IMG/VR virus record: IMGVR_UViG_3300046047_000262 | From: a virus | Reading direction: 5' to 3' (one strand) | DNA: 64,000 nucleotides | In this document: positions 799 through 57,034 of the stretch, in pieces | How positions within the stretch are numbered: the first letter of the stretch is position 1 | How the letters are laid out: the number at the start of each line of letters is the position of its first letter | Position numbers and translations under genes: made by a program | Notes under the pieces: generated by a model | What the model was told of the DNA's origin: nothing | Databases searched by the model: none | Seen by the model: the letters and a program-made list of their open reading frames with translations, nothing else

Positions 799-864
799 AA
801 GTCCATTACCTCCATAACACGTAATATCAATTATCAGCACGTTTCATGTCATTTACCATGGACT

Positions 865-950
865 ACCCATAATCGCTGTTTTTTACATCGTACGTAATCG
901 ACTATATACAGAATGGTACTGAAAACATGCGTTCTGTACATAGTCGATTA
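865..950. repeat. 86-bp dispersed intergenic repeat, copy 1 (contains 19-18-19 inverted repeat at 895-950)
   Basis: Aligns with 32379-32464; arms taatcgactatatacagaa / ttctgtacatagtcgatta. Confidence 0.8.
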
Positions 951-954
951 TCAG

Positions 955-1932
955 TTACAATTTATTGATCTTATCCACGAGCTTTTTACTGATGAACAAC
1001 GCCGAACCGTACAAGAGGATAACAATGATGAAAACAACCCATGACAGGAAGCTATGGAACCAGAATTGACGAGCTATAGGTTGAGAGAAGTATGTGTACA
1101 GGAACAATAACGGAAGGAATATAGTGGCTACCCATATCGTTGGCATCAGCGAAGCAACAGCCTGATCCCTCTTACGTCGTACCCTCTGCCTGTTCGCCAC
1201 GATCTCCTGTATGATCTTGATCTGATCAGATAGTTTAGAACTACCAGTATCAACGGCGATGATGACACAGATCATCAGGAACCTCAGTTCCTCGGCGGAG
1301 AATGAATTGTAATTGGAAAGAAGAACCTGTTTCGTGGATCCACCTGCATTCAACTGATTCTCAATATCGATGAACTCATTATGTAATTCAGGTGGAGTGG
1401 TCGAAATGGCCTCCAACAGAATAGTACGGTAATTAGCTGATGTCTGCAAGGATGCAAGCATTGATGACAAGAATGCGGGAATCTCATCAGAAAGCTTCTC
1501 AGTGCGTTTGTTAGCCTTGAAATCAAGAACCAACGCTAACAATGCTAACAAACCAATACTAACAATCGCCGCACCGATGATCTGGAATTTGAAGATGAAG
1601 GAGAACAGTACGAATACCACTGCGGTACTTATCAACGCCACCTTACCAGCATTATCACGTCTGACAGCAAGGATGTTCACACCTGAATCCACCAACCTCT
1701 TACCCCAGAACTCATTCCAACGCTGTGCTATCGTTACCTTCGTTGATTCCTCTACAGTGAAATCCGAAGTGAATTGGAGTTTCAGCTGCTTATCGAGAGC
1801 TATACGTGTGGAATACTGATCCCAGTAACGTTTGGCTAACACGCCGATAAGGAATACAATAGCGATAATCGATAACGGTACTGCTATCGTGAATAGCAGT
1901 AACGAATTATTCTGGAACAAGGTCTGTAACAT
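955..1932 (-). CDS. tadB: TadB-like type II secretion system F family pilus assembly protein
   Basis: N-terminal and C-terminal TM pairs; EIPAFLSSMLASLQT/LNAGGS pattern; directly downstream of tadA. Confidence 0.75.
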   Translation of the reverse strand: MLQTLFQNNSLLLFTIAVPLSIIAIVFLIGVLAKRYWDQYSTRIALDKQLKLQFTSDFTVEESTKVTIAQRWNEFWGKRLVDSGVNILAVRRDNAGKVALISTAVVFVLFSFIFKFQIIGAAIVSIGLLALLALVLDFKANKRTEKLSDEIPAFLSSMLASLQTSANYRTILLEAISTTPPELHNEFIDIENQLNAGGSTKQVLLSNYNSFSAEELRFLMICVIIAVDTGSSKLSDQIKIIQEIVANRQRVRRKRDQAVASLMPTIWVATIFLPLLFLYTYFSQPIARQFWFHSFLSWVVFIIVILLYGSALFISKKLVDKINKL

Positions 1933-1940
1933 GTAACATT

Positions 1941-1947
1941 AATATCA
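1941..1947 (-). promoter_or_regulatory. Class B motif TGATATT before tadB
   Basis: Exactly 8 nt before ATG at 1932, no Shine-Dalgarno. Confidence 0.55.
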
Positions 1948-1956
1948 TTGTTCTGG

Positions 1957-3474
1957 TTAATGTACGATCTTAGTGGATTTTCCTTCGAAGCCCTCTAATT
2001 GGACACATTGATCCCAAGTGTAATCAGGAATGAAATCCAATCGTTTGGTTCGTTGGAGCAATGGGCTAGGTTCGTTTACCTTGACCCAATCACCGAACGC
2101 ACGACCATTCTCATCCTTACGAAGTTGATACTCCCATAACGTCCGTACGGGTACGGTCATCTCGCCATCAACATTAGCTGGACGACTCCCCACTTCCGCG
2201 ATCTCCACGACACGACGAGTACCATCGGCCATCTTCTCCATGTGAACGATGATATCGAAAGCCGAAGCGATCATGCCCAACGTGTCCTTGCCTTGTATCA
2301 TCCCTGAAGTGGAGATAAGGTTAGTCAACCTGACAATGGTATCCTCGGGATTATTGGCATGAACGGTCGAGAACACCTGTGCTCCAGTGTTAGCAGAATC
2401 AACCAGATCGTATGCCGTTTTATCACGGGTCTCACCAATGACCACAATGCCAGGATTCATACGCAGGGACGCCCTGACGTGATCATGCATGGTGAACGCC
2501 CCAGTACCGTCAGAATTACCTTTCCTGGATTCTGTTCCAGGCACTTTGAACGGCTTATTAGGATTAAGCTCAAGTTCCAGCACGTCCTCTATGGTCCAGA
2601 TACGCTTGTCATTCGGGAATAACCCTGATATGGCATCAAGGAATGTGGTCTTACCCGAACCCGTGGAACCAATACATAACATGCTCATACCGGATTTGAT
2701 CCACTTGGCGATATCCATAAGAATCTGCTGATTGCAAGTACCATTATCAACCATATCGCTGATCGTCCAGTATTGTTGTGGATGTCTACGAATGTCTACA
2801 ATCGGACCACCAGGGGCAACATCAGTGGTCAATGCGGCCACACGGGAATAATCCTGTAGACGAGCATCCAAGTAAGGGTTGTTCGTATTGAATGACAGAT
2901 CCTTCCTATTAGCCTGTTGGAGGATCTTGTCAACAAGCATGTTCACATGTTCAGGATTGGCGAACCTCGCTGATGGCACTCGCGTCAATTGTCCACGAAG
3001 CGTTATGTTAACATTATCAGGACCATCGACATACACCTCTTCAACACGGGGATCAGACCATATGGGATCGATGATTCCCAGTCCCAGTATTTCGAATGTC
3101 ACCATCTGACTGATCGTGGAAGCACTGTCCTGATAGGAAACACCCTCTTGGTTCAGATACGTACTTACCAATGATTGTACCGCTGATAACGCCTTAAGAT
3201 AGATGTCATCATTATGATCAGCTCTACGAGCCTGAGCGAACATCTCCGATGAGTTATGGTTCTTAGCCTGCTTATACACCCATTCCACACAGGCAAGCAC
3301 CGTATCCCAATGCTTATAGAAGTAATCATCAGGAAGCTTCAACATGTAATCAAGCGTGATACTATCATTAGAGCCCGCTGAATCGGACTGCTTGGCGATC
3401 TCATTCTCCTCATCAGCATCAGCAAACATGCTGTAGTAATCATTATTGATATCGTTATTACTGTTTACTAACAT
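1957..3474 (-). CDS. tadA: TadA/CpaF pilus assembly ATPase
   Basis: GSTGSGKTT Walker A, TIEDVLEL Asp box, ASLRMNP..VVIGETRD, STVHAN His box. Confidence 0.93.
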   Translation of the reverse strand: MLVNSNNDINNDYYSMFADADEENEIAKQSDSAGSNDSITLDYMLKLPDDYFYKHWDTVLACVEWVYKQAKNHNSSEMFAQARRADHNDDIYLKALSAVQSLVSTYLNQEGVSYQDSASTISQMVTFEILGLGIIDPIWSDPRVEEVYVDGPDNVNITLRGQLTRVPSARFANPEHVNMLVDKILQQANRKDLSFNTNNPYLDARLQDYSRVAALTTDVAPGGPIVDIRRHPQQYWTISDMVDNGTCNQQILMDIAKWIKSGMSMLCIGSTGSGKTTFLDAISGLFPNDKRIWTIEDVLELELNPNKPFKVPGTESRKGNSDGTGAFTMHDHVRASLRMNPGIVVIGETRDKTAYDLVDSANTGAQVFSTVHANNPEDTIVRLTNLISTSGMIQGKDTLGMIASAFDIIVHMEKMADGTRRVVEIAEVGSRPANVDGEMTVPVRTLWEYQLRKDENGRAFGDWVKVNEPSPLLQRTKRLDFIPDYTWDQCVQLEGFEGKSTKIVH

Positions 3475-3482
3475 GCCTAACC

Positions 3483-3489
3483 AATATCG
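3483..3489 (-). promoter_or_regulatory. Class B motif CGATATT before tadA
   Basis: Exactly 8 nt before ATG at 3474. Confidence 0.55.
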
Positions 3490-3495
3490 CTGATG

Positions 3496-4395: not shown

Positions 4396-4401
4396 ACGAC
4401 C

Positions 4402-5655: not shown

Positions 5656-5665
5656 AGTTATAGCA

Positions 5666-6733: not shown

Positions 6734-6739
6734 TTGCTA

Positions 6740-10245: not shown

Positions 10246-10294
10246 ATTCCTAGTCTACCTTCCTCCCGCCATTATCTATCGTTAGCGTCAAAGT

Positions 10295-11333: not shown

Positions 11334-12131
11334 TCAGCTCCTTGATTCCGTTATAGTAAAATGATTGGCTGTATCGTTCGCTATGTTCTCCACTGTAGCA
11401 GAATCATTTGAAGTAATCATAATCCCATTTTGATTAGAGAGAACAATATATAACGCCGATTGACTTTTAGCATTGTATGTGATTGATTGCATGAACGCCG
11501 ATGAAGCACCATTTGAATTCACTTGTTTCGCATCATTCTTGGAATATAGGAAAGAGCTTGTCTTAGCATTCCTGAAAGCATAAATGTCTACAGCGTTCTT
11601 GTCCACTTGTCCTGAACCAAGAAAGCATGTCGTATTGGCATCTTTCAATGTGCATGCGCTAGTTGTCGCAGTTATCTTGCTTACTGTTTTCAGTTGTATT
11701 GCACTTGATGACTTATCAGGGTTCTCGAATGTGATGGTGTTACCATCTGCTTTTACATTGATATCGCCCGATGGGGAGTCCATTAATCCTGTGACCGATG
11801 ATGCCGGATTAGTAAGCCCGCTTTGCTTGGTTGAGGTCTTTGATGGCACTGATGTAGGCGTTGGAGCAGTAGTAGAGGTAGTACCTGATGTATCATTCTT
11901 TATTCTGGAATTTAGCATGGCTTGTGAACCAAAGTATCCACCAGCTGATAACGCAAGGAGTCCTATAATAATGATCGCAATCAGTGTTACCCGTTTCTTT
12001 TTCAGTATCCGATCAGGTCTGGCTATATCCGCATCGGTGGATGGCGGGTTATTAATAAGTTCATCCCAATCGTCGGATGATTGGTTGTTATCATCCTTAT
12101 GATCAAGGAAAGGATTGTTTCGTTCGTTCAT
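11334..12131 (-). CDS. Single-TM membrane protein with Ser/Thr-rich linker
   Basis: KKKRVTLIAIIIIGLLAL TM; extracellular domain. Confidence 0.7.
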   Translation of the reverse strand: MNERNNPFLDHKDDNNQSSDDWDELINNPPSTDADIARPDRILKKKRVTLIAIIIIGLLALSAGGYFGSQAMLNSRIKNDTSGTTSTTAPTPTSVPSKTSTKQSGLTNPASSVTGLMDSPSGDINVKADGNTITFENPDKSSSAIQLKTVSKITATTSACTLKDANTTCFLGSGQVDKNAVDIYAFRNAKTSSFLYSKNDAKQVNSNGASSAFMQSITYNAKSQSALYIVLSNQNGIMITSNDSATVENIANDTANHFTITESRS

Positions 12132-12137
12132 ATATAC

Positions 12138-12146
12138 ATGATACCA
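12138..12146 (-). promoter_or_regulatory. Class A extended -10 (TGGTATCAT), leaderless
   Basis: Exactly 6 nt before ATG at 12131. Confidence 0.7.
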
Positions 12147-12180
12147 AGTATCATGCTGTCGAACAAGAAAGCGTCAATAA

Positions 12181-12215
12181 ATAATGGGAACGGATAGTAA
12201 ATCCGTTCCCATTAT
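12181..12215 (-). terminator. Intrinsic terminator after ssb
   Basis: Perfect 15-bp inverted repeat ataatgggaacggat/atccgttcccattat, 5-nt loop, T-rich tail on minus strand. Confidence 0.75.
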
Positions 12216-12235
12216 CATCTTAACGATTTGAACAA

Positions 12236-14428: not shown

Positions 14429-14895
14429 CGGCTTGCGTCAATCTCCTTTCGGATATTATATGAAAGCATTTTCAATGCTTCGAATTCGTTATTCATGAGA
14501 CGAGCCTGACGAGTAAGTTCTTTTGAATACTGCTGATATATTACCCAAGTATTCTCGTATTCCTCAACGGTGATCTGGGCGATTGACTTCTTGACGGCAT
14601 CGGTTCTTCCCTCACAAGTCAGATACGCCCTGGCGAATCGTCTTTCATATTCAAGCTTCGCAATGACTTCCTTACGCTCAGATACCCTGATAGCATTATT
14701 GATCTTGAACAATGCGGAACGAACTGACTCTATAGCACGATCAATGGCTATGATGTCATCATAGTCACCACCCTGACCACTATCACCCATGAGAACAGGT
14801 TCAGGCTTGTACACGCCCTCTATATTGATCTTCTCAGGAAACTTTGGAAGAACTATATCCCTCTCAGCGGGAATCTTATCATTATCGTCATTCAT
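14425..14895 (-). CDS. Helical coiled-coil protein, weakly UvsY-like
   Basis: 156-aa all-helical ORF directly downstream of radA; resemblance by eye only. Confidence 0.55.
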   Translation of the reverse strand: MNDDNDKIPAERDIVLPKFPEKINIEGVYKPEPVLMGDSGQGGDYDDIIAIDRAIESVRSALFKINNAIRVSERKEVIAKLEYERRFARAYLTCEGRTDAVKKSIAQITVEEYENTWVIYQQYSKELTRQARLMNNEFEALKMLSYNIRKEIDASR

Positions 14896-14901
14896 GATAC
14901 C

Positions 14902-14910
14902 ATTATACCG
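14902..14910 (-). promoter_or_regulatory. Class A -10 (CGGTATAAT), leaderless
   Basis: Exactly 6 nt before ATG at 14895. Confidence 0.65.
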
Positions 14911-14913: not shown

Positions 14914-16299
14914 TCAGATGAGTTTGACCATATCACCTAATGATTCTATAGTGTCAATCTGAATGTCAACAGATGTTTTCAATGACCGCTTAGCGGATGC
15001 GGGTATGACGACACGTTCAAACCCCAAGCGTGCAGCTTCCTTAATCTTAGATTCCATCAATGATCGACCGCGTATCTTACCCGTCAAAGCGACTTCACCT
15101 ATCCACGCAGTCCGCGTATTGGGTTGATTATCAGCTGCACTGCTGATCACTGCAGCTGCTAGAGCCAAGTCAGCATTCGGATCACCTATCTGGACTCCTG
15201 ATATGGTACTCACGAACACGTCTGATTGACCTAATGAACATGACGGGACGTACTTCGAACAAGCCGCTATAAGAATGCGGCCACGATTGGTATTGTAACC
15301 ACTGAATTGACGTTGTGGTGACCCATATGCCGCATCAGCCACCAAAGCATTGATCTCTACGGGGAGTATCCTATTACCATCCTGTATGAATGTCTTAGCA
15401 GAACCTGCTATCAGTTCATTCATATCACCGATCAGGTATTCTGACGGGTCATCAACTGATTTCAACCCGTCATCCTCATGGACGAACACCGCGACCTCAT
15501 CGGTTTTACCATAACGGTTCTTTTGACTACGAAGGAATTTCAACCGTGTTTCCTTATCAGCATCACCAATAAAGATCGTATCAACCACATGGGCGATCTG
15601 ATTGCTACCAGCGACCTCATCTGACTTCGTGAACTGTGATATCAGGATGAACGCTACATCATTGTCCTTAGCATATTGTTTGAAGGATATGGCCGCTTCT
15701 TTTGATTGAGATACACCACCGATTGTCCCATCGACGGCATTCGAAGCCATGGTCTGCAATGAGTCAACAACCACGAACTCGGCATCATCATCAGTAGCAT
15801 GAGAGAACACGTCCTCGACTATCGTAGTGGACATGATACGAAGATGATCATCATTAATATGAAGCCTACGTGCACGCTGAGCGATCTGATGAGCGGATTC
15901 CTCACCTGATGCGTACAAGCAGTTGTATCCTTGTGATGACAGATTGCCAAGAACCTCCAATGCTAACGTGGATTTACCGAATCCAGGCTCAGCACCTATC
16001 AGGATTACCTGGCCTGGTAATATACCACCATCAAGAATACGATCAAACTCAGAGATATCCGTACTCACTCTGGGGATATCCTCATCAGAGAGACTATTCA
16101 CTGTATATGCTTTGGTATTGGATACATATGATGACTTCTTGCTGGCATTGACCCTCATACCAGCTGAAGGCTTTACCGAAGCACTCTCAGATTCCCTATG
16201 TACCGCAGTACCATAAGCCCCACACTCAGGGCATATCCTGAATTCCATGATAGCGGTTTTCCCGCAAGCCGAACATTCCCAACCGATACTATTAGACAT
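14914..16299 (-). CDS. radA: DNA repair protein RadA/Sms
   Basis: Zn finger CSAC..CPEC, GAEPGFGKST, YASGEES, VVDSLQT, KNRYG, Lon-like C-terminal domain; start moved to MSNSIG. Confidence 0.95.
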   Translation of the reverse strand: MSNSIGWECSACGKTAIMEFRICPECGAYGTAVHRESESASVKPSAGMRVNASKKSSYVSNTKAYTVNSLSDEDIPRVSTDISEFDRILDGGILPGQVILIGAEPGFGKSTLALEVLGNLSSQGYNCLYASGEESAHQIAQRARRLHINDDHLRIMSTTIVEDVFSHATDDDAEFVVVDSLQTMASNAVDGTIGGVSQSKEAAISFKQYAKDNDVAFILISQFTKSDEVAGSNQIAHVVDTIFIGDADKETRLKFLRSQKNRYGKTDEVAVFVHEDDGLKSVDDPSEYLIGDMNELIAGSAKTFIQDGNRILPVEINALVADAAYGSPQRQFSGYNTNRGRILIAACSKYVPSCSLGQSDVFVSTISGVQIGDPNADLALAAAVISSAADNQPNTRTAWIGEVALTGKIRGRSLMESKIKEAARLGFERVVIPASAKRSLKTSVDIQIDTIESLGDMVKLI

Positions 16300-16305
16300 A
16301 TCATT

Positions 16306-16314
16306 ATTATACCA
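16306..16314 (-). promoter_or_regulatory. Class A extended -10 (TGGTATAAT), leaderless radA
   Basis: Exactly 6 nt before ATG at 16299. Confidence 0.75.
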
Positions 16315-20281: not shown

Positions 20282-20608
20282 TTATTGCCCGTTGAAGGCG
20301 GCGTCACTGTTATTGCTGTTACCAACACTCTTAGCAGCATGTGAGAACATTGATGACAGGATACCGTCCTGACCGAACAGATCAGATCCGAAGAAGATCA
20401 ATGCACCAACAACAGCGGCGATACCAAGGAACGCCAACAGTTTGGTCCATTGCTGACCTCGAATGAAAGTGAACGCGGAAACGGCCACGATAGCTAGGAA
20501 CACTGGTGAAATCCAGTTTTTCAGTATCGATCCCCAGAGTCCGTTCAAACCACCAGTCGAAGCCATGAAGAATATGGCTTGAGTGTATAAGTATGATAGT
20601 GACAGCAT
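20282..20608 (-). CDS. Small two-TM TcpD/VirB2-pilin-like protein
   Basis: NWISPVFLAIVAV..FIRGQQWTKLLAFLGIAAVVGALIF; follows TcpC-like gene; AAGGGAG RBS before MLSLS. Confidence 0.55.
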   Translation of the reverse strand: MLSLSYLYTQAIFFMASTGGLNGLWGSILKNWISPVFLAIVAVSAFTFIRGQQWTKLLAFLGIAAVVGALIFFGSDLFGQDGILSSMFSHAAKSVGNSNNSDAAFNGQ

Positions 20609-20727
20609 TTGCGTTTCTCCCTTTCCTTGCGTACTTCGCACGTACAAGTATTCAATATCACCGATGATTCGGTTATTACACATACATGCTGAAATACAAT
20701 GTAGTACTTATCTAACGAGCTTCATTT

Positions 20728-26262: not shown

Positions 26263-28254
26263 TTATTGTTCCTTCTTGTTCACAGAAAATGTAATGCATT
26301 GTACATTATCATCGTATTCCATCGTAATAATATCGCTTTTATCCGTTTCATCATGCGATCCATTAGAGATGAATATATTAGCTATCTTGATGACGATCTG
26401 ATTCCGTATCACTCTCTGGAGTTCCCTAGCTCCGAATTGTTGTGAATCAGATTGATCCAATAGCCAATCGATCGTATGCTCATCCAAGTTGATGTTGAGT
26501 TCGTATTGAGGATGGTTCACCATGATCAGATTCGCAAGGTCTTTTAATTGTAGATGAATAATATCCTTGAGACTTTGACGATCAAGAGCATTGAAAATGT
26601 ATATACCATCGAGTCTATTGATGAATTCAACCAAGAAATACTTGGATAATGACTTTCTGAACATTCCATCACGTTCAGCAGTATCGGCCGCAGGACTAAT
26701 ATTACCGAATCCTGATCGTGTATGCAACGTGTCGGCATTGCCGAGGTTCGTCGTCATGATAAAAATACAATTCGTGAAATCAACGGTCTTGCCCTTACCA
26801 TCGGTCATTCTCCCGCTATCGAATACCTGAAGGAATGCGTTCCATACCTTGGAATGGGCTTTCTCGGCTTCATCGAGCAGGATGATCGACTGTGGATGCT
26901 CATCAACCTCATTCGTCAATTGGCCACCATCATCTGACCCGATAAGCCCAGGTGCAGACCCAAACAGCTTGGAAACAGTGTATTCCTCTGAGTACTCGCT
27001 CATATCCAATCTCACGAAATGAGCCTGTTTGGTAAAAACCTCATCAGCCAAAGCCTTAGCAAGTGCTGTCTTTCCTACACCAGATGGTCCTTGGAAGATA
27101 AACGATGCAACGGGTCTATCCTTACGTCGTAATTTGGCAGCATCGATCTTTAATGTTTCACATACTCTATCAATCACATCATCCTGATGAATAATCCGTT
27201 TCTTTAGTCTGTCACTTAAGGACATGATATCTTTATATGGAAGGATCTTAGGCTTCTTCTTCGTTTTTTTAAGTACGGGTTCCGAATCCTCGACATTCTG
27301 GTCCTCGGGTTCACCGAAGATAGCAGCAAGACTACTTCCCTGCGGAATAAGAAAGCGAGTCGACGTCGAATCATCAAGATAATCCAGATCGGTAAGATTC
27401 ACCGGATGCTGTTCAAACACCTCCTTGGTAAGAGACCGCATCATCTTGTTATCAGGTTCCACATTATGCTCCAGCATTGTTGCATGTAGGAATTCAAGAT
27501 GATCTACACAGATTCCAATAGGTATTTCAACGATATCATTCTTCTTGGGAAACCTTTTAGAATCGGGGTCAACGATACCCAGACGATAAATATCCTTTAA
27601 GAACTCTTCTATCATGGTATCGTTAAGATGGGAATCATACTGAGGCTCGAATTTCAGCTTGTTAACAGTCTTCATCTCATTAACAAAACTCTCCCACGTC
27701 ATCTCAAAATCATCCATGTCAACGATCTCAAACGCACTGACCAATGAATGATCCTTCATCAACAGGGAGCCCGTTTCCTCCCTATCTAGTTCAAGAATCA
27801 TGGATACATGCGGACATGCCATATGAATATAAGCCGCTATATCAGGAGCATCAACGTATAGAACATGTTTGTTTCTAGGATATTGAACCGCACTATCCTC
27901 AAAATCAATAAGAGCATCATCAAGGGCGGACTTACCATCATCGGATGAATACGCGATACGATAAGCACCAGAATCGACCTTGGTAATCGAACGACGCTCA
28001 TAAGCAGAAGGCAACGTATCCAGGTTCTTACCCAATTGTTCTATGATGAATGACTTACCCGACATGATATCACCTGACACGATAATGGACTTTGATTTAG
28101 TGACATAGTTCAGTATCCTATTAAGGATCATGACCATCTTCAATGCTTCCCGCGGAATACCATCCAATGGTCTGACATCATATTCACCTGGCTTTGGGAA
28201 CGACTTAAAGACATTATCCAAATAATTACCGTATAATTGCTCCTGATCTGTCAT
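26263..28254 (-). CDS. Clp/Hsp100 ATPase (ClpA/C-like), degenerate first AAA module
   Basis: D1 GDIMSGKS/LYVDAP; D2 GPSGVGKT, RLDMSEY, IILLDEAEKAH, DSGRMTDGKG, FINRLD, FGARELQR. Confidence 0.88.
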   Translation of the reverse strand: MTDQEQLYGNYLDNVFKSFPKPGEYDVRPLDGIPREALKMVMILNRILNYVTKSKSIIVSGDIMSGKSFIIEQLGKNLDTLPSAYERRSITKVDSGAYRIAYSSDDGKSALDDALIDFEDSAVQYPRNKHVLYVDAPDIAAYIHMACPHVSMILELDREETGSLLMKDHSLVSAFEIVDMDDFEMTWESFVNEMKTVNKLKFEPQYDSHLNDTMIEEFLKDIYRLGIVDPDSKRFPKKNDIVEIPIGICVDHLEFLHATMLEHNVEPDNKMMRSLTKEVFEQHPVNLTDLDYLDDSTSTRFLIPQGSSLAAIFGEPEDQNVEDSEPVLKKTKKKPKILPYKDIMSLSDRLKKRIIHQDDVIDRVCETLKIDAAKLRRKDRPVASFIFQGPSGVGKTALAKALADEVFTKQAHFVRLDMSEYSEEYTVSKLFGSAPGLIGSDDGGQLTNEVDEHPQSIILLDEAEKAHSKVWNAFLQVFDSGRMTDGKGKTVDFTNCIFIMTTNLGNADTLHTRSGFGNISPAADTAERDGMFRKSLSKYFLVEFINRLDGIYIFNALDRQSLKDIIHLQLKDLANLIMVNHPQYELNINLDEHTIDWLLDQSDSQQFGARELQRVIRNQIVIKIANIFISNGSHDETDKSDIITMEYDDNVQCITFSVNKKEQ

Positions 28255-28260
28255 GTATAT

Positions 28261-28269
28261 ATTATACCA
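28261..28269 (-). promoter_or_regulatory. Class A extended -10 (TGGTATAAT), leaderless clp
   Basis: Exactly 6 nt before ATG at 28254. Confidence 0.75.
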
Positions 28270-30004: not shown

Positions 30005-32293
30005 CTATTCCGTTACTGTTAGCTCAATGGTCTTTTTAGATCCAACCACCAGTGACGTACCAGCAGTAACTGACTGCTTACTAACAATTCCCGTAGGGTA
30101 CGAGGAATTGTTCTTCGCTGTATCAGCTGATACCTTGGTTTTCAATACCTTACCAGTCAATCCTAATGAATCCAATGTCTTCAATGCGGTATCAGGTGTC
30201 ATACCTGTGAGACTTGGCACCTGTACCATGTTCTTCGATTGGGTGTTCGTTCTGATGAATGTAGAATCCTGATTATCCATATCAAGTGGATTATCGGGAG
30301 TACCTCCTAATGCTGAGACGATGAAGTCCCTGGTACTGTGGAGAACCGCATGGCTACCATTAGGGGTCGTCCATATTCCCCTCCAAGTAATGGAATTCAA
30401 TGGGTACTGGAAATTACCCCTGGGATCATAAGCATCGGAGAACACGACGAATTGGGCAACAGTTTGCACCCAAGCGGAATTCGCATTGTTATCAGTGGTT
30501 CCTGACTTGCCTACCGTGGTTCTACCACTGATGGCCGCATCCTCACCGAACCTACCGCTGATATCACCGTTCACGTTCGCATTCTGAGCTTTGAGAACAA
30601 TGGAAGCGGATTTAGGTGACATTACTGACCGACAAGACGCAGCTGACGCATCATAATCATCAGGCGGTTCTATTGCAGTACCGTTTATCATCTTCATCGA
30701 ACTTATCGGCGTCGCAGGGCAATACACTCCTTTATTAGCGAAAGTTGCATATGCGGCAGCCATGTTGATCGGGGTATTATTCGTAGTACCTAAAGTATAT
30801 GATATGGATGCCGCAGTGATGTTATCAGGTGTTGACAGACCTACCTTACCACTGAATTCCTTGACTTTAAGCACGCCGACACGTGATTCCAATTCTGAGA
30901 ACCATGTATTCGATGAGTATGCGGTAGCTTGCAGATAGCTTAATTGGCCACCCTGTAATCTACATGACGCCGAATTCTTGACACCTCCAATAGGAACCTC
31001 GAATCCAGCTTTGCTCCATGGGCATGCTGAGCTTACCGTGGTCATGAGCTGTTGTTCCGACCATCCTGCATTCAGTGCGGCGGCGAGAGTCATCATCTTA
31101 TACGTGGAACCTGTTTGAGTGGGGGAATTAGCCAAGACTAATTGTGTCTCGCCTTTACTGGTATCCGTTCCCCATGTCCTATTCGCACCTATGGCTAGAA
31201 CCGCACCAGTACCAGGTTCGACTACCGCTGAAGCTTGTATAGTCCTATTAGTTACTCCCCAATCCGATATGAGCTGAGTATTGAGCTTATCGGTCATATC
31301 AGGATTGAGATTCGTGTGAATGGATAGCCCACCGGACGCTACTTTAGCCGCACGCTCCTCAGCAGTGCTGCCAAGTTCCTTATCATTAAGCAGCCAATTG
31401 ACCACATACTGGCAATAGAATGGATATGCACTGGAACCACAGCCGCCTGCGGTTTGCTGAATACTGGTCTTTAAAGGTTCCTTTACAGCAGCATCGTGCT
31501 CCTGTTTGCTGATAGTTCCGTCTTCCAGCATTCTATCAAGCACGTACTTCTGTCTTGTTTTTACCCTATTCATAGTAGCAGTGTCATCAAGATTCAGCAT
31601 ATTGTACAATGATGGGTTGTTGATCGAACCTGCAAGAGCGGCGGCTTCTCCGATGGTGAGATCCTTGGCCTGTTTATTGAATATAGTCTCCGCGGCCGTC
31701 TCCACGCCGTAGGTATTCGGGGATCCGATTGCAACAGTGTTCAGGTATGTAAGCAGAATCTCATCCTTGGAATGAGACTTCTCATAATTCATCGCCAGTT
31801 TGAGTTCTTTGATCTTTCGACCGATAGTGACTTTGGTGGCGGATGCCTTTTCGGATGAGGTCGAGGTGGAGTTATAGTATATAAGGTTCTTCATGAGCTG
31901 CTGGGTTATTCCCGAACCTCCACCTGAACTGCGTAGAACACTTCTTAACGTAGCGACAACATCAATTGCCCCATGGGTATAGAATCCTTTATCCTCGGCA
32001 GATATGACTCCATTGCGTACATATGGTGATATATCCTTGAGCTCTGATACTTCCTTCCTGTTCTCCGTCCAGGTTTCAGCGAATTGCTTACCGTTCTTAT
32101 CATACATCACCGTATGCTGATTGATTTGTACTGTTGGTAGTGTTGCTGGTGCATTATTCCAGAATTCTACTATGGGTCCGGCAGAATTCAATACTCCTGA
32201 AGCGAACATAGCAAGTACGAATACGACTAATGCGACGCTACCTGTAAGGAATGCAGCGAATAGCATGATACCATTACGGATTCTTTTACTCAT
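30005..32293 (-). CDS. Class A penicillin-binding protein (transglycosylase-transpeptidase) with C-terminal PASTA
   Basis: EDKGFYTHGAID, GITQQLMKN, RKIKE; SxxK (STYK), SxN (SSN), KSG; VPSLTGMT PASTA. Confidence 0.92.
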   Translation of the reverse strand: MSKRIRNGIMLFAAFLTGSVALVVFVLAMFASGVLNSAGPIVEFWNNAPATLPTVQINQHTVMYDKNGKQFAETWTENRKEVSELKDISPYVRNGVISAEDKGFYTHGAIDVVATLRSVLRSSGGGSGITQQLMKNLIYYNSTSTSSEKASATKVTIGRKIKELKLAMNYEKSHSKDEILLTYLNTVAIGSPNTYGVETAAETIFNKQAKDLTIGEAAALAGSINNPSLYNMLNLDDTATMNRVKTRQKYVLDRMLEDGTISKQEHDAAVKEPLKTSIQQTAGGCGSSAYPFYCQYVVNWLLNDKELGSTAEERAAKVASGGLSIHTNLNPDMTDKLNTQLISDWGVTNRTIQASAVVEPGTGAVLAIGANRTWGTDTSKGETQLVLANSPTQTGSTYKMMTLAAALNAGWSEQQLMTTVSSACPWSKAGFEVPIGGVKNSASCRLQGGQLSYLQATAYSSNTWFSELESRVGVLKVKEFSGKVGLSTPDNITAASISYTLGTTNNTPINMAAAYATFANKGVYCPATPISSMKMINGTAIEPPDDYDASAASCRSVMSPKSASIVLKAQNANVNGDISGRFGEDAAISGRTTVGKSGTTDNNANSAWVQTVAQFVVFSDAYDPRGNFQYPLNSITWRGIWTTPNGSHAVLHSTRDFIVSALGGTPDNPLDMDNQDSTFIRTNTQSKNMVQVPSLTGMTPDTALKTLDSLGLTGKVLKTKVSADTAKNNSSYPTGIVSKQSVTAGTSLVVGSKKTIELTVTE

Positions 32294-32299
32294 ACTCTT

Positions 32300-32308
32300 A
32301 TGATACCA
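32300..32308 (-). promoter_or_regulatory. Class A extended -10 (TGGTATCAT), leaderless PBP
   Basis: Exactly 6 nt before ATG at 32293. Confidence 0.7.
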
Positions 32309-32378
32309 GTATTGGTTATTATTTTTAGAATACGAAAATATCCATTATTAGGCTTGTAACATGCTATTATGAGCAGTC

Positions 32379-33614: not shown

Positions 33615-33666
33615 AGAACCTCCGATTCACAAGAATGAATATCATGATTACCGCGATTCAAAAGAA

Positions 33667-40838: not shown

Positions 40839-40893
40839 TACAGTTCCCTCCTCTGACCGGACTGATCTATCATATGATGAATATCATTGATGA

Positions 40894-41469
40894 TCAGGTT
40901 TCGCTGATGGTCATGAGAACTCCTGTACATGTATCAGGTATATGATGACATAATGGACAATCATAATTGTATTCCATACTATCTATTTCCCAATGATTCT
41001 TTAAGTAAGCGATCTTCTTGAATCCCAGATCGTACAGGAACCGTTCACTACCCAATAAAGGCACTGTCGGTATGGTATCCTCATCCATATCAGGGTTGAT
41101 CTTCATGACAAGTTCAACCCTGTTAACACCATGCATGGACATCCTTTTCAGGACATTGAACGTCAACATGGAGCCATACCCGTTACCCCTGTACCTGGCA
41201 TCCACACAAACCGCATCCACTATGCCGATGGTATACGTGAACTTCCCTGACGGCATGACCTCATAATGGAATAATGCGAACCCAACAGGAACACCAGCAA
41301 CCACACGAAGAATAAGATAAAAGACCACATCACCATCAGGTGAGCTTGATTCCACTGATCGCCATATGGATTCCAGAGCGTTCTCACCTATAGTCGCATC
41401 AGCTATTTTCTTGACATCATATGGTACATTATCGAATGTCAGAGCAGCAGTCTTTTTCTTAGCTATCAT
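40894..41469 (-). CDS. GNAT family N-acetyltransferase
   Basis: VDAVCVDARYRGNGYGSML acetyl-CoA motif A; YDLGF; C-terminal CPLC..C. Confidence 0.85.
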   Translation of the reverse strand: MIAKKKTAALTFDNVPYDVKKIADATIGENALESIWRSVESSSPDGDVVFYLILRVVAGVPVGFALFHYEVMPSGKFTYTIGIVDAVCVDARYRGNGYGSMLTFNVLKRMSMHGVNRVELVMKINPDMDEDTIPTVPLLGSERFLYDLGFKKIAYLKNHWEIDSMEYNYDCPLCHHIPDTCTGVLMTISET

Positions 41470-41477
41470 ATCATTAC

Positions 41478-41484
41478 AATATCG
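41478..41484 (-). promoter_or_regulatory. Class B motif CGATATT before GNAT
   Basis: Exactly 8 nt before ATG at 41469. Confidence 0.5.
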
Positions 41485-41505
41485 TAAAAGACATTATCAG
41501 GCTCA

Positions 41506-41799: not shown

Positions 41800-42239
41800 G
41801 CATATTGAATATCACAGGAATCAGCAATACCGCCAGCAGAGTACAGTAAAGCCACATCAGCATAATCCTTCAAAAGAGCCCCCAATTTGGTATGAATCTG
41901 CTCATACGTCATGCCATGATCCGACTTCGCAATACCTTTCTTACCGATTTCGTATCTGTCATCCTCAGAAGTATCCTTGAACGCTATTTGAGGTATATGG
42001 AGCCTACAGTACTCCGATTTCACATCGAACTGGATATGACTATTATAATCATAGAGAACCCTGTTAGCGATCTGCTCACGCATAAGAAGTATTGAGTTCC
42101 TGATCATATCCTCGGGAATCTCACCATTCCATCCCCATTTCCTTACCTGTGATTCGATGACCTTATGAGGATCAACGGGTATGATGCTATCCTGCGGATA
42201 GGTAAACAGCATCCACTTATATTTCTTTGACATACTCAT
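41796..42239 (-). CDS. Hypothetical protein
   Basis: ORF overlapping the HU gene start. Confidence 0.6.
   Translation of the reverse strand: MSMSKKYKWMLFTYPQDSIIPVDPHKVIESQVRKWGWNGEIPEDMIRNSILLMREQIANRVLYDYNSHIQFDVKSEYCRLHIPQIAFKDTSEDDRYEIGKKGIAKSDHGMTYEQIHTKLGALLKDYADVALLYSAGGIADSCDIQYA
41808..41814 (-). promoter_or_regulatory. Class B motif TGATATT before HU
   Basis: Exactly 8 nt before GTG at 41799. Confidence 0.5.
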
Positions 42240-44614: not shown

Positions 44615-44686
44615 AACTAGTGTATCCTTTCTTCGTGTTCATATCTGAATATCTAACATCGGTCATGACCTGATATTGAACAACCA

Positions 44687-47806: not shown

Positions 47807-47870
47807 CTTTGTATCGTTGACATTCGCTTACCCTACTATCTAATATCACGATGAGAGTCGTATCATATAG

Positions 47871-49341: not shown

Positions 49342-49989
49342 CTATTTTGGAAGACGAAGAATACCTGATGAACCGTCACGAACCCAACCAACTATGCGAC
49401 TAGAATCGGGAACTGACGTGCCAAAACCGCTATTATAGATCATTTGACTGGCTATTGGTGTCAGACGACCTGTTGACATTATGGTATTGAACTTATGAAT
49501 AATCCCCCTTAGTTCCCTTGATAGGGAATCGTCCGCAGTCTGGAAAAGAATTGTATGAACCCCATGATCGGCTCCGTGATCGAGAATGTACTTGAACTTG
49601 GACATCGCCTGAATCCTACCCGTATCGGTACGTATACCTGAAAGCAGACTATCCATCTCTTCTATGATCAGTACGCAGGGGGTACCATCATAGTTCTCAA
49701 GAGATGATAACAACTTACGGGCTTGTACCCCTGTAGATGCTCTATTAATACGTATTACAGGCACTAGTGCTGACGCGAAGAGATCATCAGCCCATTTGAT
49801 TCTGGTTCTTATTGTTGATGGAGTACCCGTTATCAGGACATTGGAATCATGATTACTATTGAATACCAAGTACCATAATGTTCCGTTAGGCTTCTGATAT
49901 GGCATACTGAAAAACAGACCCTGCCCTACCATACTTGATCCGATAGGTGAGCCCAGGTCTCGTGTTGAATCACAGGTTATGGACTCCAT
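49342..49989 (-). CDS. Degenerate FtsK/SpoIIIE-like ATPase domain protein
   Basis: NVLITGTPS (no GKS), VLIIEEMDSL, GADHGVHTIL; start moved to MESIT. Confidence 0.5.
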   Translation of the reverse strand: MESITCDSTRDLGSPIGSSMVGQGLFFSMPYQKPNGTLWYLVFNSNHDSNVLITGTPSTIRTRIKWADDLFASALVPVIRINRASTGVQARKLLSSLENYDGTPCVLIIEEMDSLLSGIRTDTGRIQAMSKFKYILDHGADHGVHTILFQTADDSLSRELRGIIHKFNTIMSTGRLTPIASQMIYNSGFGTSVPDSSRIVGWVRDGSSGILRLPK

Positions 49990-49995
49990 ACCTTC

Positions 49996-50004
49996 ATGAT
50001 ACCA
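49996..50004 (-). promoter_or_regulatory. Class A extended -10 (TGGTATCAT), leaderless
   Basis: Exactly 6 nt before ATG at 49989. Confidence 0.7.
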
Positions 50005-50837: not shown

Positions 50838-50849
50838 TGATCAGCCTCC

Positions 50850-51395: not shown

Positions 51396-51407
51396 TACTG
51401 CTCCTTA

Positions 51408-53861: not shown

Positions 53862-54877
53862 TGCTGTTGAACAGTATCTATCAATATTCGGCGGGATGAC
53901 GCCGATGCGTGATTATAATTTGGTACGTATCGTATGGTGAGATGTTTTTGTTCGGTGGCTTTTGAACCGTCTGATTTGATAAATGTATACGTTACAGGAG
54001 TAGAACACGTAATGGAATCTCCTGAAACCGCTTTAATGTCATAATTACAAGTTATATCAGAGATTACACCGATAGCCCATGGGTATGGTGAATTCGTGGT
54101 CTTACCACCGAAGTCATCCTTAGCCCAATCAGCCTCCAATGGAATAATGCTCTTAGCCGTATTCTCATCCTGAGTAGCGATAGCGTTGACACGATCATCA
54201 GCGAACATATTCGTAAAGGAATTCAACGGTGACGGCAAAGTGCTGTCATGATCACCAATACGATACTTGCTCTGTAACGCCGTCCAATCGCCATAGATAG
54301 GATTGACAATCCTTTCCATATCGTCTCTTACCTGTTCGGTCACGTTCTCAGCAGTCAGGAAACTATACTCGGGATTCGTAGTGCCATCAGAAAGTTCAGC
54401 TTTCGAAGTATCATCAGTAAGATTACTATCGGTTGCTTTTGAAAGCAACGCACTTGATGCGTTCTCAGGCATTGCAGCATCTGCGGCGGCATTCGCTGTT
54501 TTCCTGTCCGCATCGGATATCTTAGTAGAGGATTGCTGATAATACGAGGGGATTCCCATACCACCAAGATAATCGGTGGTTGAAGCACTAGAGGATGTGT
54601 CACTTGCAGAACCCTTGGACAAGGAGTTGGAAACAGAGCTCTGTTCCTTCTTTACCGAATCAGTATTGATCTTACCGAATACGATACCGCCGATAATCAA
54701 ACCTGCAATCAATATGACAGTAAAACCACCAAGGAAATACCACATTTTACTATGCGATGACTGGACAGGTTCATCCTGACCTATCACATCATTATCATCA
54801 CCAAGGAGTTGATCCTCTTCATTTTCCTGGTCGTGATTATCATCGTTATCTTTTTTGAACATGCGGAATCCTTTCAT
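53858..54877 (-). CDS. Single-TM protein with acidic N-terminus and extracellular domain
   Basis: TM MWYFLGGFTVILIAGLIIGGIVFG; coupled to the adhesin gene. Confidence 0.7.
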   Translation of the reverse strand: MKGFRMFKKDNDDNHDQENEEDQLLGDDNDVIGQDEPVQSSHSKMWYFLGGFTVILIAGLIIGGIVFGKINTDSVKKEQSSVSNSLSKGSASDTSSSASTTDYLGGMGIPSYYQQSSTKISDADRKTANAAADAAMPENASSALLSKATDSNLTDDTSKAELSDGTTNPEYSFLTAENVTEQVRDDMERIVNPIYGDWTALQSKYRIGDHDSTLPSPLNSFTNMFADDRVNAIATQDENTAKSIIPLEADWAKDDFGGKTTNSPYPWAIGVISDITCNYDIKAVSGDSITCSTPVTYTFIKSDGSKATEQKHLTIRYVPNYNHASASSRRILIDTVQQQ

Positions 54878-54927
54878 AATATCATTACTTAATATCGCAG
54901 TGATTCAGATTCACGAAACCAAGGAAA

Positions 54928-55182
54928 TCATATGCCAAAAGCTACACGGAAACCCCATATGAACAATAATGCTATAGCACCTATCAATGCCAATGAGAAA
55001 ACCACAGTAACAATAGCCTGTATTATGGCTATGATCCGTCGGTTATCCGTCGCTGTCTTCATGATTTTCTTAACTGATTTCGAATCAGTGTGACGATCAT
55101 CAATCTGTACTGGTTCACGTTTAGGACGATCAGCCCACTCAGTGTTATCAAAATCAAAATTCAATCCACCCATAATCATCAC
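54928..55182 (-). CDS. Small membrane protein
   Basis: 84 aa with C-terminal TM; overlaps upstream stop. Confidence 0.6.
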   Translation of the reverse strand: MMIMGGLNFDFDNTEWADRPKREPVQIDDRHTDSKSVKKIMKTATDNRRIIAIIQAIVTVVFSLALIGAIALLFIWGFRVAFGI

Positions 55183-55751
55183 CCCTTATCAGAATTGACT
55201 ATCTGTCCAAGAATATCTTTCTTATCAATGACATAAGTATTACCTTTATGGCATGAACCTCCTGTACAGACAACGAGATACTGATTCGTAAGCCATCCCC
55301 TATCGGGCATGGAAGCAGGAACCTTGGTCTTCGTAGCCACATCATCATATAGAAGCTTTCCGTCTGAGGATAATGTCAATCGACCAGCAGGACCTGCTAC
55401 AATACGCATCGTGCTTACATCTGATTGCAAGGTCGTGCCAAGCGTAAGCTTTGAAAGCGGGTTCGCCAGCATGTCACGATTATCATTGATACGTGCGATA
55501 ATATGAGTGTTCTTAGGAATAGCACCTGAACGAAGGTCAGGGTCCTTAGTCAACACTACGCCTACGGAATCCGTAACCACGAATCTAGCAGCGGTAGTGA
55601 CTATGCAACCAAGGTAAAAGACGATGACTACGACGAGAATCCCCAACACGTATCCAACTGATTTCAATAAAGTCTGTCTAATGGCATAGCTCGTCTTCAC
55701 TTGGACTTTCGGACTAGTATACGCCTCGTTATGATCAGCTACATCACTCAT
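55179..55751 (-). CDS. Degenerate S26 signal-peptidase/TraF-like protein
   Basis: MRIVAGPAG (cf. KRVIGLPGD), GKLLYD, NQYLVVC, ILGQI; catalytic Lys apparently replaced. Confidence 0.5.
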   Translation of the reverse strand: MSDVADHNEAYTSPKVQVKTSYAIRQTLLKSVGYVLGILVVVIVFYLGCIVTTAARFVVTDSVGVVLTKDPDLRSGAIPKNTHIIARINDNRDMLANPLSKLTLGTTLQSDVSTMRIVAGPAGRLTLSSDGKLLYDDVATKTKVPASMPDRGWLTNQYLVVCTGGSCHKGNTYVIDKKDILGQIVNSDKG

Positions 55752-55759
55752 AACAAACG

Positions 55760-55766
55760 AATATCA
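55760..55766 (-). promoter_or_regulatory. Class B motif TGATATT before S26-like gene
   Basis: Exactly 8 nt before ATG at 55751, no Shine-Dalgarno. Confidence 0.55.
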
Positions 55767-55780
55767 CCGAATACACAGGA

Positions 55781-56998
55781 TCAGATGTCCTTCGCATAGA
55801 AATCCGACGTGTAATGATGAGCAGGAGCATTGGAGAATGATGCTCTTTTCGCAAAACCTATGGCATCAAGAAGATGTGCATGAAGACTTGATGATGATAC
55901 CATCGCACCCATGGTATTGAATCTTCGCTTGTTCTCTCGCATCCCCAATACTGAGAACAGCATCTTGTACATATTCAAAGCCTGCTGGAACCCATTCTTA
56001 GTCCATACGCCCCTAGACTTGGCCTCACATACCAGTGTTGGCACAAAGATAGTCCGTTCTGGAGATGAGTAATCATTAGTACCAGTGAACAAGGCAGGCA
56101 CACTATACCCGACTACGAACGCCATGAATGAGCGGATATGACCTGAATCATCTACCGATACGACAAAATGGGCATCCTCTATCAACGAATCAACGTATTT
56201 GACCACATCACCTTGTTCACCTGTGAACAATGACTGCATGTATGTAAGACGCTCAGTGATTGGCGGTTCCAACCAATTCGAATACTTACGGCAGAATGCA
56301 ATCAGTGCAAGATACTGTTTGGAGCCATGTTCTATCCTACCAATGAACCTGACGGTACCGCCTGTTTTGATTGGTATGGGCTGGATGGTACTCTGTACTA
56401 ACGGACGCATACCCTTGACATTTGCTTTGCCGACATTGGGTAAAGGCATCGCTATTGAATCCTTACCAGTGTTCTCGTCAACTGATTTAATGCGTTTGAT
56501 CAAAGCTTTACCCGATGAGTTACGACGTAACCCCTCGTTGATCAGAGCGTTCTCAATATGCTTCGCGATGATAGGATTCAACTGTGAATCCATTGATATC
56601 ATGAGATCAATGGTCTTGGTTTTGTTCTTGCGGCGTTTATCCATGGCGGCGTTCTTTTTCAAGACGTATTGTGACATCAACCGTATACAAGTGGATAACC
56701 TCGAAAAGGTTATCCTTGATGATGGATCAATAAGAACATAATCAATGGATACGACCGTATGTGACGGATTCTTCTTTTCCTTACCAATACGAAAAAGAAA
56801 CGCTATTGACCAGAACTCGTTCTGACCGTCGATGTTCTTACATACCAAAGCCTTATAACCATCGGATGCGATACCATATGGCGTCGGATAATTCACTGCT
56901 TCAAGATGGTATCTCGCGAAGGAACGTGAAAGATCCCTGAGTAGTCTCAGGTATACGACCTTAGACAAATCAGAGATAAGTTCATACCGAATTTTCAT
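55781..56998 (-). CDS. Putative tandem GNAT-fold protein
   Basis: VSIDYVLID in N-half; FVPTLVC..SRG, LDAIGF in C-half; AAGGAG RBS. Confidence 0.45.
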   Translation of the reverse strand: MKIRYELISDLSKVVYLRLLRDLSRSFARYHLEAVNYPTPYGIASDGYKALVCKNIDGQNEFWSIAFLFRIGKEKKNPSHTVVSIDYVLIDPSSRITFSRLSTCIRLMSQYVLKKNAAMDKRRKNKTKTIDLMISMDSQLNPIIAKHIENALINEGLRRNSSGKALIKRIKSVDENTGKDSIAMPLPNVGKANVKGMRPLVQSTIQPIPIKTGGTVRFIGRIEHGSKQYLALIAFCRKYSNWLEPPITERLTYMQSLFTGEQGDVVKYVDSLIEDAHFVVSVDDSGHIRSFMAFVVGYSVPALFTGTNDYSSPERTIFVPTLVCEAKSRGVWTKNGFQQALNMYKMLFSVLGMRENKRRFNTMGAMVSSSSLHAHLLDAIGFAKRASFSNAPAHHYTSDFYAKDI

Positions 56999-57034
56999 AT
57001 AATCTCCTTTGGCTTCACATATGATTAATATCGG

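Follow-up and report, generated by a model that had tools for sequence, protein, structure and literature searches.

The 64,000-nucleotide (nt) stretch of IMG/VR record IMGVR_UViG_3300046047_000262 analyzed here (the window) comes from a bioreactor sludge metagenome and is part of a giant non-cellular element, for which our analysis covered the window and about 6 kb past its left end. Two discrete short words precede its genes and, judged from their placement, mark two promoter classes and two predicted regulons that are conserved between related elements: TGGTAYMAT (class 1) and YGATATT (class 2). YGATATT is very probably a promoter element; class 2 probably needs a sigma factor other than the reader of class 1; and this other sigma may be, with a chance a little short of even, the sigma-like protein of 481 amino acids (aa) encoded at 57035-58480. 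Taken as a whole, the best explanation, to which we assign a probability of roughly 0.55, is that class 2 is a core promoter element of the lineage with an element-coded sigma as its candidate reader.

Placement of YGATATT in the window

All 56 genes of the window lie on the minus strand, the GC content is 44%, and 2,229 nt (3.5%) are intergenic. YGATATT is not enriched over the window as a whole (41 copies seen, 38 expected); it is the placement that is non-random. Specifically, i) 29 copies are on the minus, coding strand and 12 on the plus strand; ii) GATATT is the top sense-strand 6-mer of the intergenic DNA (16 seen against 1.3 expected whatever base precedes it, z 12.8; 14 are YGATATT), and 37% of all minus-strand GATATT copies fall within this 3.5% of the DNA; iii) the 56 upstream 60-mers contain 16 matches, compared with a mean of 0.77 in 20,000 composition-matched shuffles; iv) six copies share a single offset, 8 nt before the start codon, where the maximum at any offset in the same number of shuffles was 2; and v) YGATATT-N8-RTG is found 7 times in the window against 1.54 expected. 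The first-pass annotation had reported six copies at exactly 8 nt, before tadB, tadA, the tcpC-like gene, the GNAT gene at 41469, HU, and the S26-like gene, and had thought chance an unlikely cause; all of these coordinates hold, and the shuffles confirm this view, a result that extends element-wide in a complete relative. The intergenic copies it gave at 823, 18692, 33638, 40880, 47842, 54891, and 57027 are likewise real, but the TGATATT at 20654-20660 lies inside the longest open reading frame (ORF) there, 20282-20683, and is not followed by a start codon at a gap of 8 nt.

No Shine-Dalgarno (SD) sequence was found in the six 8-nt spacers, and the remaining class 2 copies stand 13-43 nt ahead of genes with a clear GGAGG-type SD. 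A pyrimidine occupies position -1 at 6 of 6 window sites and at 28 of 31 class 2 sites of G001, compared with 58% in a loose control set, consistent with transcripts that begin at the start codon's first base. G001 (419,707 bp; L015-L035, also L012) and G002 (324,925 bp; L036-L052) are relatives whose terminal direct repeats identify them as complete circles; further relatives are referred to as L003, L004, L006, L007, and L008. The class 2 sites of the window are as follows.

1941..1947, minus strand: TGATATT, separated by 8 nt from the tadB start (1932), leaderless layout; in G001 tadB is preceded by GATATCTT-N6-ATG
3483..3489, minus strand: CGATATT, separated by 8 nt from the tadA/cpaF start (3474); CATATC-N8-ATG at the orthologues in G001 and L003
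22272..22278, minus strand: CGATATT 8 nt before the tcpC-like start (22263); the G001 orthologue (145638-147344) has class 2 at 8 nt
41478..41484, minus strand: CGATATT 8 nt before the GNAT start (41469)
41808..41814, minus strand: TGATATT 8 nt before the HU GTG start (41799), within the end of the upstream ORF; the G001 HU orthologue has GATATCTC 81 nt upstream
55760..55766, minus strand: TGATATT 8 nt before the 190-aa "S26-like" gene (55751); the G001 orthologue has TGATATCTT-N6-ATG, the L006 orthologue TATATC-N8-ATG
823..829, minus strand: class 2 word 24 nt ahead of moxR, which is SD-led (start 798); CATATC-N8-ATG at moxR in G001 and L003
18692..18698, minus strand: class 2 word 41 nt before an SD-led 219-aa gene (18650); in G001, GATATCTT 48 nt upstream
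32337..32342, minus strand: GATATT after G, in the long intergenic region ahead of PBP1, with a class 1 promoter downstream
33638..33644, minus strand: class 2 word 23 nt before the SD-led 378-aa DivIVA-like gene (33614); in G001, GATATCTT 65 nt upstream
40880..40886, minus strand: class 2 word 41 nt before an SD-led 1565-aa gene (40838)
44648..44653, minus strand: GATATT after A, 33 nt before a 223-aa gene (44614); in G001, TGATATCTT 43 nt upstream
47842..47848, minus strand: class 2 word 35 nt before the TrbL/VirB6-like gene (47806), right after a hairpin; GATATCTT lies 72 nt upstream of the G001 orthologue, and GGATATT precedes the TrbL-like gene in L008
54878..54884 and 54891..54897, minus strand: two class 2 words before a 339-aa gene heading the tadE-containing operon
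57027..57033, minus strand: class 2 word 28 nt before a 405-aa gene with an SD (56998), immediately following the sigma-like gene; in G001, GATATCTT 125 nt upstream
60287..60293 and 60305..60311, minus strand: two CGATATT words upstream of the NlpC/P60 gene

At two of the SD-led sites (57016-57033 and 40839-40886) an ATG follows 6 nt past the class 2 word, opening a minimal ATG-TGA ORF at the 57027 site and an 11-codon ORF at the 40880 site; these may be leaderless mini-ORFs or chance.

It is very improbable that the word acts as something other than a promoter, namely an RNA processing site, a translation enhancer, or an operator. A gap of 8 nt would also suit a ribosome-binding signal, tadA and tadB have separate copies although the two genes are just 24 nt apart, and the GATATC core found in relatives is palindromic. 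Against this, the word has no complementarity to the anti-SD sequence, and ordinary GGAGG sites are used in the same replicon; it also occurs at 13-43 nt ahead of SD-led genes, often directly after hairpins; the pyrimidine at -1 and purine at +1 fit initiation at the start codon; the window version is asymmetric and strand-locked; and the word is in register with class 1, an obvious -10 element.

Class 1 and the separation of the two classes

A housekeeping class TGGTAYMAT-N6-ATG had also been proposed, and it is real: GGTAYMAT-N6-ATG is found 9 times in the window against 0.37 expected. Class 1 heads recG, a penicillin-binding protein (PBP) gene, the Clp gene, radA, the DUF3566 operon, and three other genes, four of them after correction of the annotated start. 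The longest-ORF starts are wrong for radA (true start 16299), clp (28254), the AAA-like gene (49989), DUF3566 (59290), the sigma-like gene (58480), and moxR (798), the corrections being made from class 1 promoters or homologue alignments. The class 1 sites are listed here.

59288..59304, minus strand: GGTATCAT-N6-ATG at the corrected start (59290) of DUF3566, which opens the operon closed by the sigma-like gene; the G001 DUF3566 orthologue is preceded by TTGGTACTAT-N7-ATG
62953..62969, minus strand: GGTACAAT-N6-ATG at recG; class 1 in G001
32291..32307, minus strand: GGTATCAT-N6-ATG at the class A PBP gene; class 1 in G001
28252..28268, minus strand: class 1 at the Clp-type ATPase gene (corrected start 28254); class 1 in G001
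16297..16313, minus strand: class 1 at radA (corrected start 16299); class 1 in G001
14893..14909, minus strand: class 1 at a 156-aa gene; class 1 in G001
12129..12145, minus strand: class 1 at a 265-aa gene heading the PD-(D/E)XK and dnaB group
49987..50003, minus strand: class 1 at the AAA-like gene (corrected start 49989)

Both words span -15 to -7 counted from the start codon, and they are discrete. Among sites of the form.G.TAnnnn the base at -13 is coupled to the tail of the hexamer, G going with a YMAT tail and A with a TYnn tail (counts 8/1/0/8 in the window, Fisher p 4e-4, and 13/2/6/21 in G001, Fisher p 8e-5), and class 1/class 2 hybrids are rare. As suggested earlier, the class 2 word behaves as a -10-type element in register with TGGTAYMAT. 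In the same register the window class 2 sites have G-14, T-12, and A-11 with -7 not conserved. The absence of a -7 T noted by the first-pass annotation thus stands for the window but not for G001, where the class 2 version is TGATATCTT, with T at both -8 and -7, and fits the extended -10 pattern TGnTAnnnT. Its remark that no consistent -35 could be seen is borne out in both elements: none precedes the 16 window sites, where upstream information is weak, nor the 31 class 2 sites of G001, where it is near zero. Classical two-hexamer -35/-10 pairs occur in the window at the level of chance (49 found, 50.6 expected).

Leaderless genes are known in Actinobacteria in which a -10 element (TANNNT, often with a TGn extension) stands 6-7 nt ahead of the start codon. 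This layout fits both classes without any -35, and class 1 is a textbook case, probably an ordinary actinobacterial-type extended -10 promoter read by the host primary sigma. Class 2 differs from it in its tighter word, coupled positions, own gene set, and lack of a -7 T in the window.

A further word, GATAAT (and with it ATGATA), is enriched in the intergenic DNA (8-9 seen, about 1.3 expected) at no fixed distance from starts, for example in 10246-10294, 12132-12235, 41470-41505, and 799-954; it may represent a signal of its own or a weaker form of class 1 or class 2.

Conservation of the classes between relatives

Among 85 genes of five related contigs (44-60% GC), ATATY peaks at a gap of 8 nt (7 sites, with at most 2 at any other gap), and the genes concerned are tadA, tadB, moxR, crgA, the S26-like gene, and an Rce1-like gene. 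We also scanned G001 for every 6-mer at every gap ahead of long open frames. The top offset-locked word was ATATCT at 7 nt (19 seen against 0.6 expected), followed by TATCTT at 6, TGATAT at 9, and GATATC at 8, and the same words top the intergenic enrichment (62-85 seen, 10-13 expected). In all, 31 G001 genes have [G/C/A]ATATY-N8-start, with consensus tgATATCTTa..c.tATG, and 21 have class 1 in the form TTGGTACCAT-N7-ATG. Class 2 is thus more frequent than class 1 in this complete relative, where it is the commonest intergenic motif. The G001 class 1 genes include topoisomerase, a DNA polymerase III clamp-loader (gamma/tau-type) subunit, MgsA, and Clp; the class 2 genes include FtsK/SpoIIIE-like, TcpC-like, Tad, ABC, SNF2, TGS, and YdjM genes and many unknowns. 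One FtsK/SpoIIIE-like gene of class 2, at L020:862-1818, also shows a weak intein Hint match (PF05203, E 3e-4). Class 2 was first read as the mark of a pilus and transfer regulon; the set is broader than that, as the ABC, SNF2, TGS, and YdjM genes and also the MoxR and HU genes show.

Class membership is conserved between orthologues. In G001, tadA, tadB, the tcpC-like gene, and the S26-like gene, 4 of the 6 leaderless genes, retain class 2 at 8 nt (p 4e-4), and moxR has class 2 at 8 nt there as well. Seven SD-led or upstream cases (HU included) are also class 2 in G001, with GATATCTT upstream of the orthologues of the 219-aa, DivIVA-like, 825-aa, 223-aa, TrbL-like, and 405-aa genes. The genes that stay in class 1 are recG, PBP1, clp, radA, the 156-aa gene, and DUF3566 (6 of 8, p 4e-7), and no orthologue pair between the window and G001 crosses from one class to the other.

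The class 2 word itself drifts from relative to relative around a shared core [G/C/A]ATAT[C/T]: it is GATATT in the window and L008, GATATC(TT) in G001 and L004, CATATC in L003 and L006, and TATATC in L006. In the distant L008 (37% GC), all 4 sense-strand copies of GATATT fall within the 2.1% of DNA that is intergenic, before a TrbL-like gene, a GNAT gene, and two others. The class 1 word, in contrast, is constant among the relatives examined (TGGTAYMAT or TGGTACCAT), and the drift of the one beside the constancy of the other fits a private, co-evolving reader of class 2.

A divergent sigma-70-family protein

The candidate reader lies in the window itself.

57035..58480, minus strand: sigma-like gene, 481 aa; winged helix, alpha/beta domain, sigma2, sigma3, and C-terminal helical domain

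The ORF extends from 57035 to 58537, and we place the true start at 58480 because homologues begin there. It is the last gene of the DUF3566 operon, which is under class 1 in both the window and G001. The first-pass annotation had tied class 2 to a non-host specificity factor and singled out this gene; profile searches, Pfam, hhalign, and structural alignments agree in identifying the predicted product as a divergent sigma-70-family protein, nearest FliA/WhiG. Its family, 88 representative clusters from metagenomes, was unannotated until now and has a new domain layout with an N-terminal winged-helix extension.

The sigma link comes from profile searches and from alignments made with VIA. As a single sequence the protein has no Pfam match, and neither it nor the family matches a PHROG. 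Among PDB structures, however, the family profile finds FliA (E 6e-4), another sigma-28 (1rp3), and WhiG; of 66 family members searched against Pfam, 11 match Sigma70_r3 (PF04539, best 4.7e-9) and 9 match Sigma70_r2 (PF04542); and hhalign of the C-terminal family profile with four canonical-like sigmas of relatives gives 87% probability (E 3.7e-6) over 121 columns covering sigma2-sigma3. Foldseek returned no significant match for either the full-length or the C-terminal AlphaFold2 (AF2) model, whose predicted local distance difference test (pLDDT) scores are 86-89 (88.7 for the model with the winged helix). In the structural alignments, the modeled C-terminal half agrees best with S. aureus SigB (Z 8.9 over 208 residues), followed by HrdB, sigma-28, sigma-S, sigma-32, and pro-sigma-K, so that sigmas dominate the match list; sigma2 domains align to residues 1-96 of the C-terminal model (Z 5-6.4), and sigma3 of sigma-28 (1rp3) aligns with Z 7.0 and a root-mean-square deviation of 2.9 over 60 residues.

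A confidently modeled C-terminal helical domain (model residues 189-267) stands where region 4 would be expected. This part is covered in whole-sigma alignments alone and lies beyond the reach of the hhalign match, and its own best matches are not sigma4, which fits the absence of a -35 motif. At the other end, residues 8-95 of the AF2 model form a MarR/ArsR-like winged helix (Z ~8), and residues 1-212, winged helix plus ferredoxin-like alpha/beta domain, replace sigma region 1; they may serve in DNA contact or in binding a ligand or an anti-sigma. A search of 185,579 species genomes with one peptide pattern, a weak negative, found no member of the family.

A class 2 word at 58698-58704, inside a 105-aa gene, lies 217 nt upstream of the sigma-like gene, and in G001 TATATCTT lies 63 nt upstream of the orthologue. 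Autoregulation is known for FliA/SigD/WhiG, and these words may reflect autoregulation here.

A proposed circuit and its rivals

We propose the following. Class 1, which fronts replication, repair, and wall genes, would be read by the host holoenzyme, and by driving the DUF3566 operon would lead to synthesis of the sigma-like protein; this, by candidate binding to the host core RNA polymerase, would redirect transcription to class 2, the outcome being an early-to-late cascade like that of large phages. Class 2 would act as a -10-type element without a -35 partner, transcription starting about 9 nt past the last base of the word to judge from the layout. Where a start codon stands at that point, the mRNA is predicted to be leaderless (tadA, tadB, tcpC-like, GNAT, HU, S26-like); where the gene begins further downstream, as for moxR, the VirB6-like and DivIVA-like genes, and others, a short leader with an SD is predicted. 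The host enters this scheme because the complete relatives lack genes for RNA polymerase beta' and 16S rRNA, so that the host core RNA polymerase must be used.

The word could be read in two registers. In the first, GATATT would be the -10 hexamer (A-11, T-7) with an 8-nt discriminator, as in the late promoters of SPO1 (PMC3601020); in the second, TGA-TATTNN would be in register with class 1 and have an unconserved -7, as in sigma-28 promoters (PMC12784957). The pyrimidine at -1 favors a start at the ATG under either register and cannot tell them apart.

Relatives also carry a second sigma. Every relative examined codes for a canonical-like sigma of 276-334 aa that matches PF04542 and PHROG 351; no copy was found within the 64-kb window. 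Examples are as follows.

L007:8495-9499, canonical-like sigma gene
L008:8796-9659, canonical-like sigma gene
L012:937-1764 (G001), canonical-like sigma gene

Because relatives carry this second sigma, the sigma-like protein is only inferred to be the class 2 reader. One alternative is that the canonical-like sigma reads class 2 and the 57035-58480 protein reads class 1 or a third set, which we regard as decidedly unlikely. Both sigma genes are present in each relative, and in L007 and L008 they are near each other, the canonical-like gene being two genes upstream of the sigma-like gene; moreover, class 1 (TTGGTACCAT in G001) is as information-rich as a private promoter, and a sigma-like operon under class 1 could be autoregulated. 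Class 1, however, is the word closest to TGnTATAAT, so that the host primary sigma, or one of canonical type, would naturally be expected to use it. The canonical-like gene of G001 has a class 2 word upstream (GATATCTTA, with a possible 14-codon leaderless ORF) and would therefore be a class 2 target, though autoregulation is possible, and in L007 and L008 it has sigma-A-like promoters.

Alternatively, a host sigma could read class 2, either the primary sigma with a second extended -10 optimum or an alternative sigma of FliA/WhiG type, the element protein doing something else. We consider this unlikely, though the stronger of the two alternatives that assign class 2 to another sigma. Actinobacterial primary sigmas need little beyond a -10 element, the G001 word TGATATCTT satisfies TGnTAnnnT, and G002 has the sigma-like gene without the motif; YGATAT is also similar to CGATAA, the core of sigma-28 promoters, and in some Actinomycetota pili are under the control of WhiG homologues (PMC12871210, PMC12784957). 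Yet the 8-9 near-invariant positions and the coupling of -13 to the tail exceed the tolerance expected of a single sigma, hybrids are rare, the drift of the class 2 word beside a constant class 1 points to a private reader, and the sites of the window lack what a sigma-28-type reader would need, the TMAA -35 at N16 being absent and TGA replacing CGA in half of the sites.

We wish to stress the points that weigh against an element-coded reader. The distant G002 (29.5% GC) keeps a homologue of the sigma-like gene, and no class 2 motif was seen there; its promoters are of the TTGACA-N17-TATAAT type (tGTTGACAAA-N14-TGTATAAT), and its ribosome sites are AAGGAG. That classical promoters occur where the sigma-like gene is kept suggests that the promoter grammar of these elements follows the host. 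(An apparent ATTGAT-N6-ATG signal in G002 proved to be a coding-sequence artefact.) The presence of a canonical-like sigma in relatives, in G001 with a class 2 word upstream, makes other wirings possible, and it is by parsimony that the 57035-58480 protein is tied to class 2, as opposed to class 1 or a third motif. The G001 class 2 word could be read by a host primary sigma, a sigma-28-type -35 is absent, and about half of the window sites have TGA in place of the CGA that sigma-28 needs. Finally, the structural Z-scores are moderate for a helical protein, and the class 2 start sites are those predicted from the arrangement of word and gene.

Comparison with known systems

The first-pass annotation had likened class 2 to the late promoters of phage T4. 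There gp55, together with gp33 and the sliding clamp, reads the promoter word TATAAATA. The likeness lies in a -10-only promoter and a small specificity factor from invading DNA, but it is a loose one: the word is different (TATAAATA is absent), the candidate keeps sigma2 and sigma3 and has no gp55 or other PHROG phage-sigma match, and there is no sign of clamp coupling. SPO1 late and sigma-28 promoters appear to be closer analogues.

SPO1 late promoters, served by gp33/gp34, have the form CGTTAGA-N17-19-GATATT (PMC3601020), with a -10 hexamer identical to that of class 2. There too a sigma carried by invading DNA redirects the host core, in a cascade that starts from host-type promoters, as proposed here. 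The differences are that the class 2 sites of the window and G001 have neither CGTTAGA nor another -35; that the sigma-like protein has no match to the phage sigmas of PHROGs and is much larger, with its 481 aa and winged-helix extension; and that no capsid or terminase was found here, and the transcripts are predicted to be often leaderless.

The sigma-28 factors (FliA/SigD/WhiG) recognize the -10 element (-15)GCCGATAA(-8), in which -7 is unconserved: these sigmas lack region 1.2, so that the base is not flipped out (PMC12784957). In some Actinomycetota, type IV pili are controlled by sigmas of the WhiG type (PMC12871210). FliA and WhiG are the best PDB sequence matches of the family, YGATAT approximates CGATAA, and -7 is not conserved in the window sites either. 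In contrast, the TMAA (TAAA) -35 at N16 is found at 0 of 16 window sites; sigma-28 needs an invariant CGA, and 17 of the 29 minus-strand YGATATT copies have TGA; an extended GC element ahead of the word is absent; the sigma-28 register would put the start site 2 nt before the ATG; and the sigma-like protein is twice as long as sigma-28.

The replicon

The window encodes replication and repair proteins (dnaB, ssb, dnaN, radA, recG, thyX), a class A PBP with PASTA domain and a Clp-type ATPase, pilus proteins (tadA/cpaF, tadB, tadE), and also TrbL/VirB6-like, TcpC-like, HU, GNAT, NlpC/P60, and DUF3566 proteins; no tRNA genes were found in it. Megablast of the window against plasmids and phages gave no match, single-protein scans of viral and genome contigs turned up no relatives, and a PHROGs search with ten unknown window proteins gave 0 matches. 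Relatives with conserved gene order exist as contigs of up to 420-495 kb (others of 290-495 kb exist), three of them, G001 and G002 included, in IMG/VR, which classes the relatives of the window as viral.

G001 and G002 were searched for 16S rRNA and RNA polymerase beta' genes, and neither was found; the replicon is a non-cellular giant element, and an origin from a tiny symbiont genome is rejected. Nor was an HK97-type capsid or a clear terminase found in G001 and G002 with the models tried. The element may be conjugative, as the Tad, TcpC, VirB6, and FtsK-like genes suggest, and it could be either a plasmid or a phage; a phage origin gains no support from the capsid and terminase models, yet IMG/VR lists the relatives as viral.

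Implications

Large phages are known to carry sigma factors that have private promoters. If our reading is right, the present element would be a mobile replicon with its own sigma and private promoters, in an uncultured, plasmid-like giant lineage that has no reference genome. More specifically, and tentatively, since we hold this full version somewhat less probable than its denial, the 57035-58480 protein may found a new branch of the sigma-70 family that reads a private, -35-less [G/C]ATATY promoter with a start 9 nt downstream; together with the second element sigma, it would form a two-sigma circuit running pilus, conjugation, and many other genes in circular extrachromosomal elements of 0.3-0.5 Mb, a new lineage whose hosts would be Gram-positive and actinobacterium-like.

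A simple sequence rule would then predict the transcription units of these elements and their two regulons, divided between replication, repair, and wall genes on the one hand and pilus, conjugation, and many unknown genes on the other. Because the class 2 word varies among relatives while class 1 is constant, the lineage offers a natural series for studying the co-evolution of sigma factors and promoters, and its members may supply candidate orthogonal promoter-sigma pairs for Gram-positive hosts.

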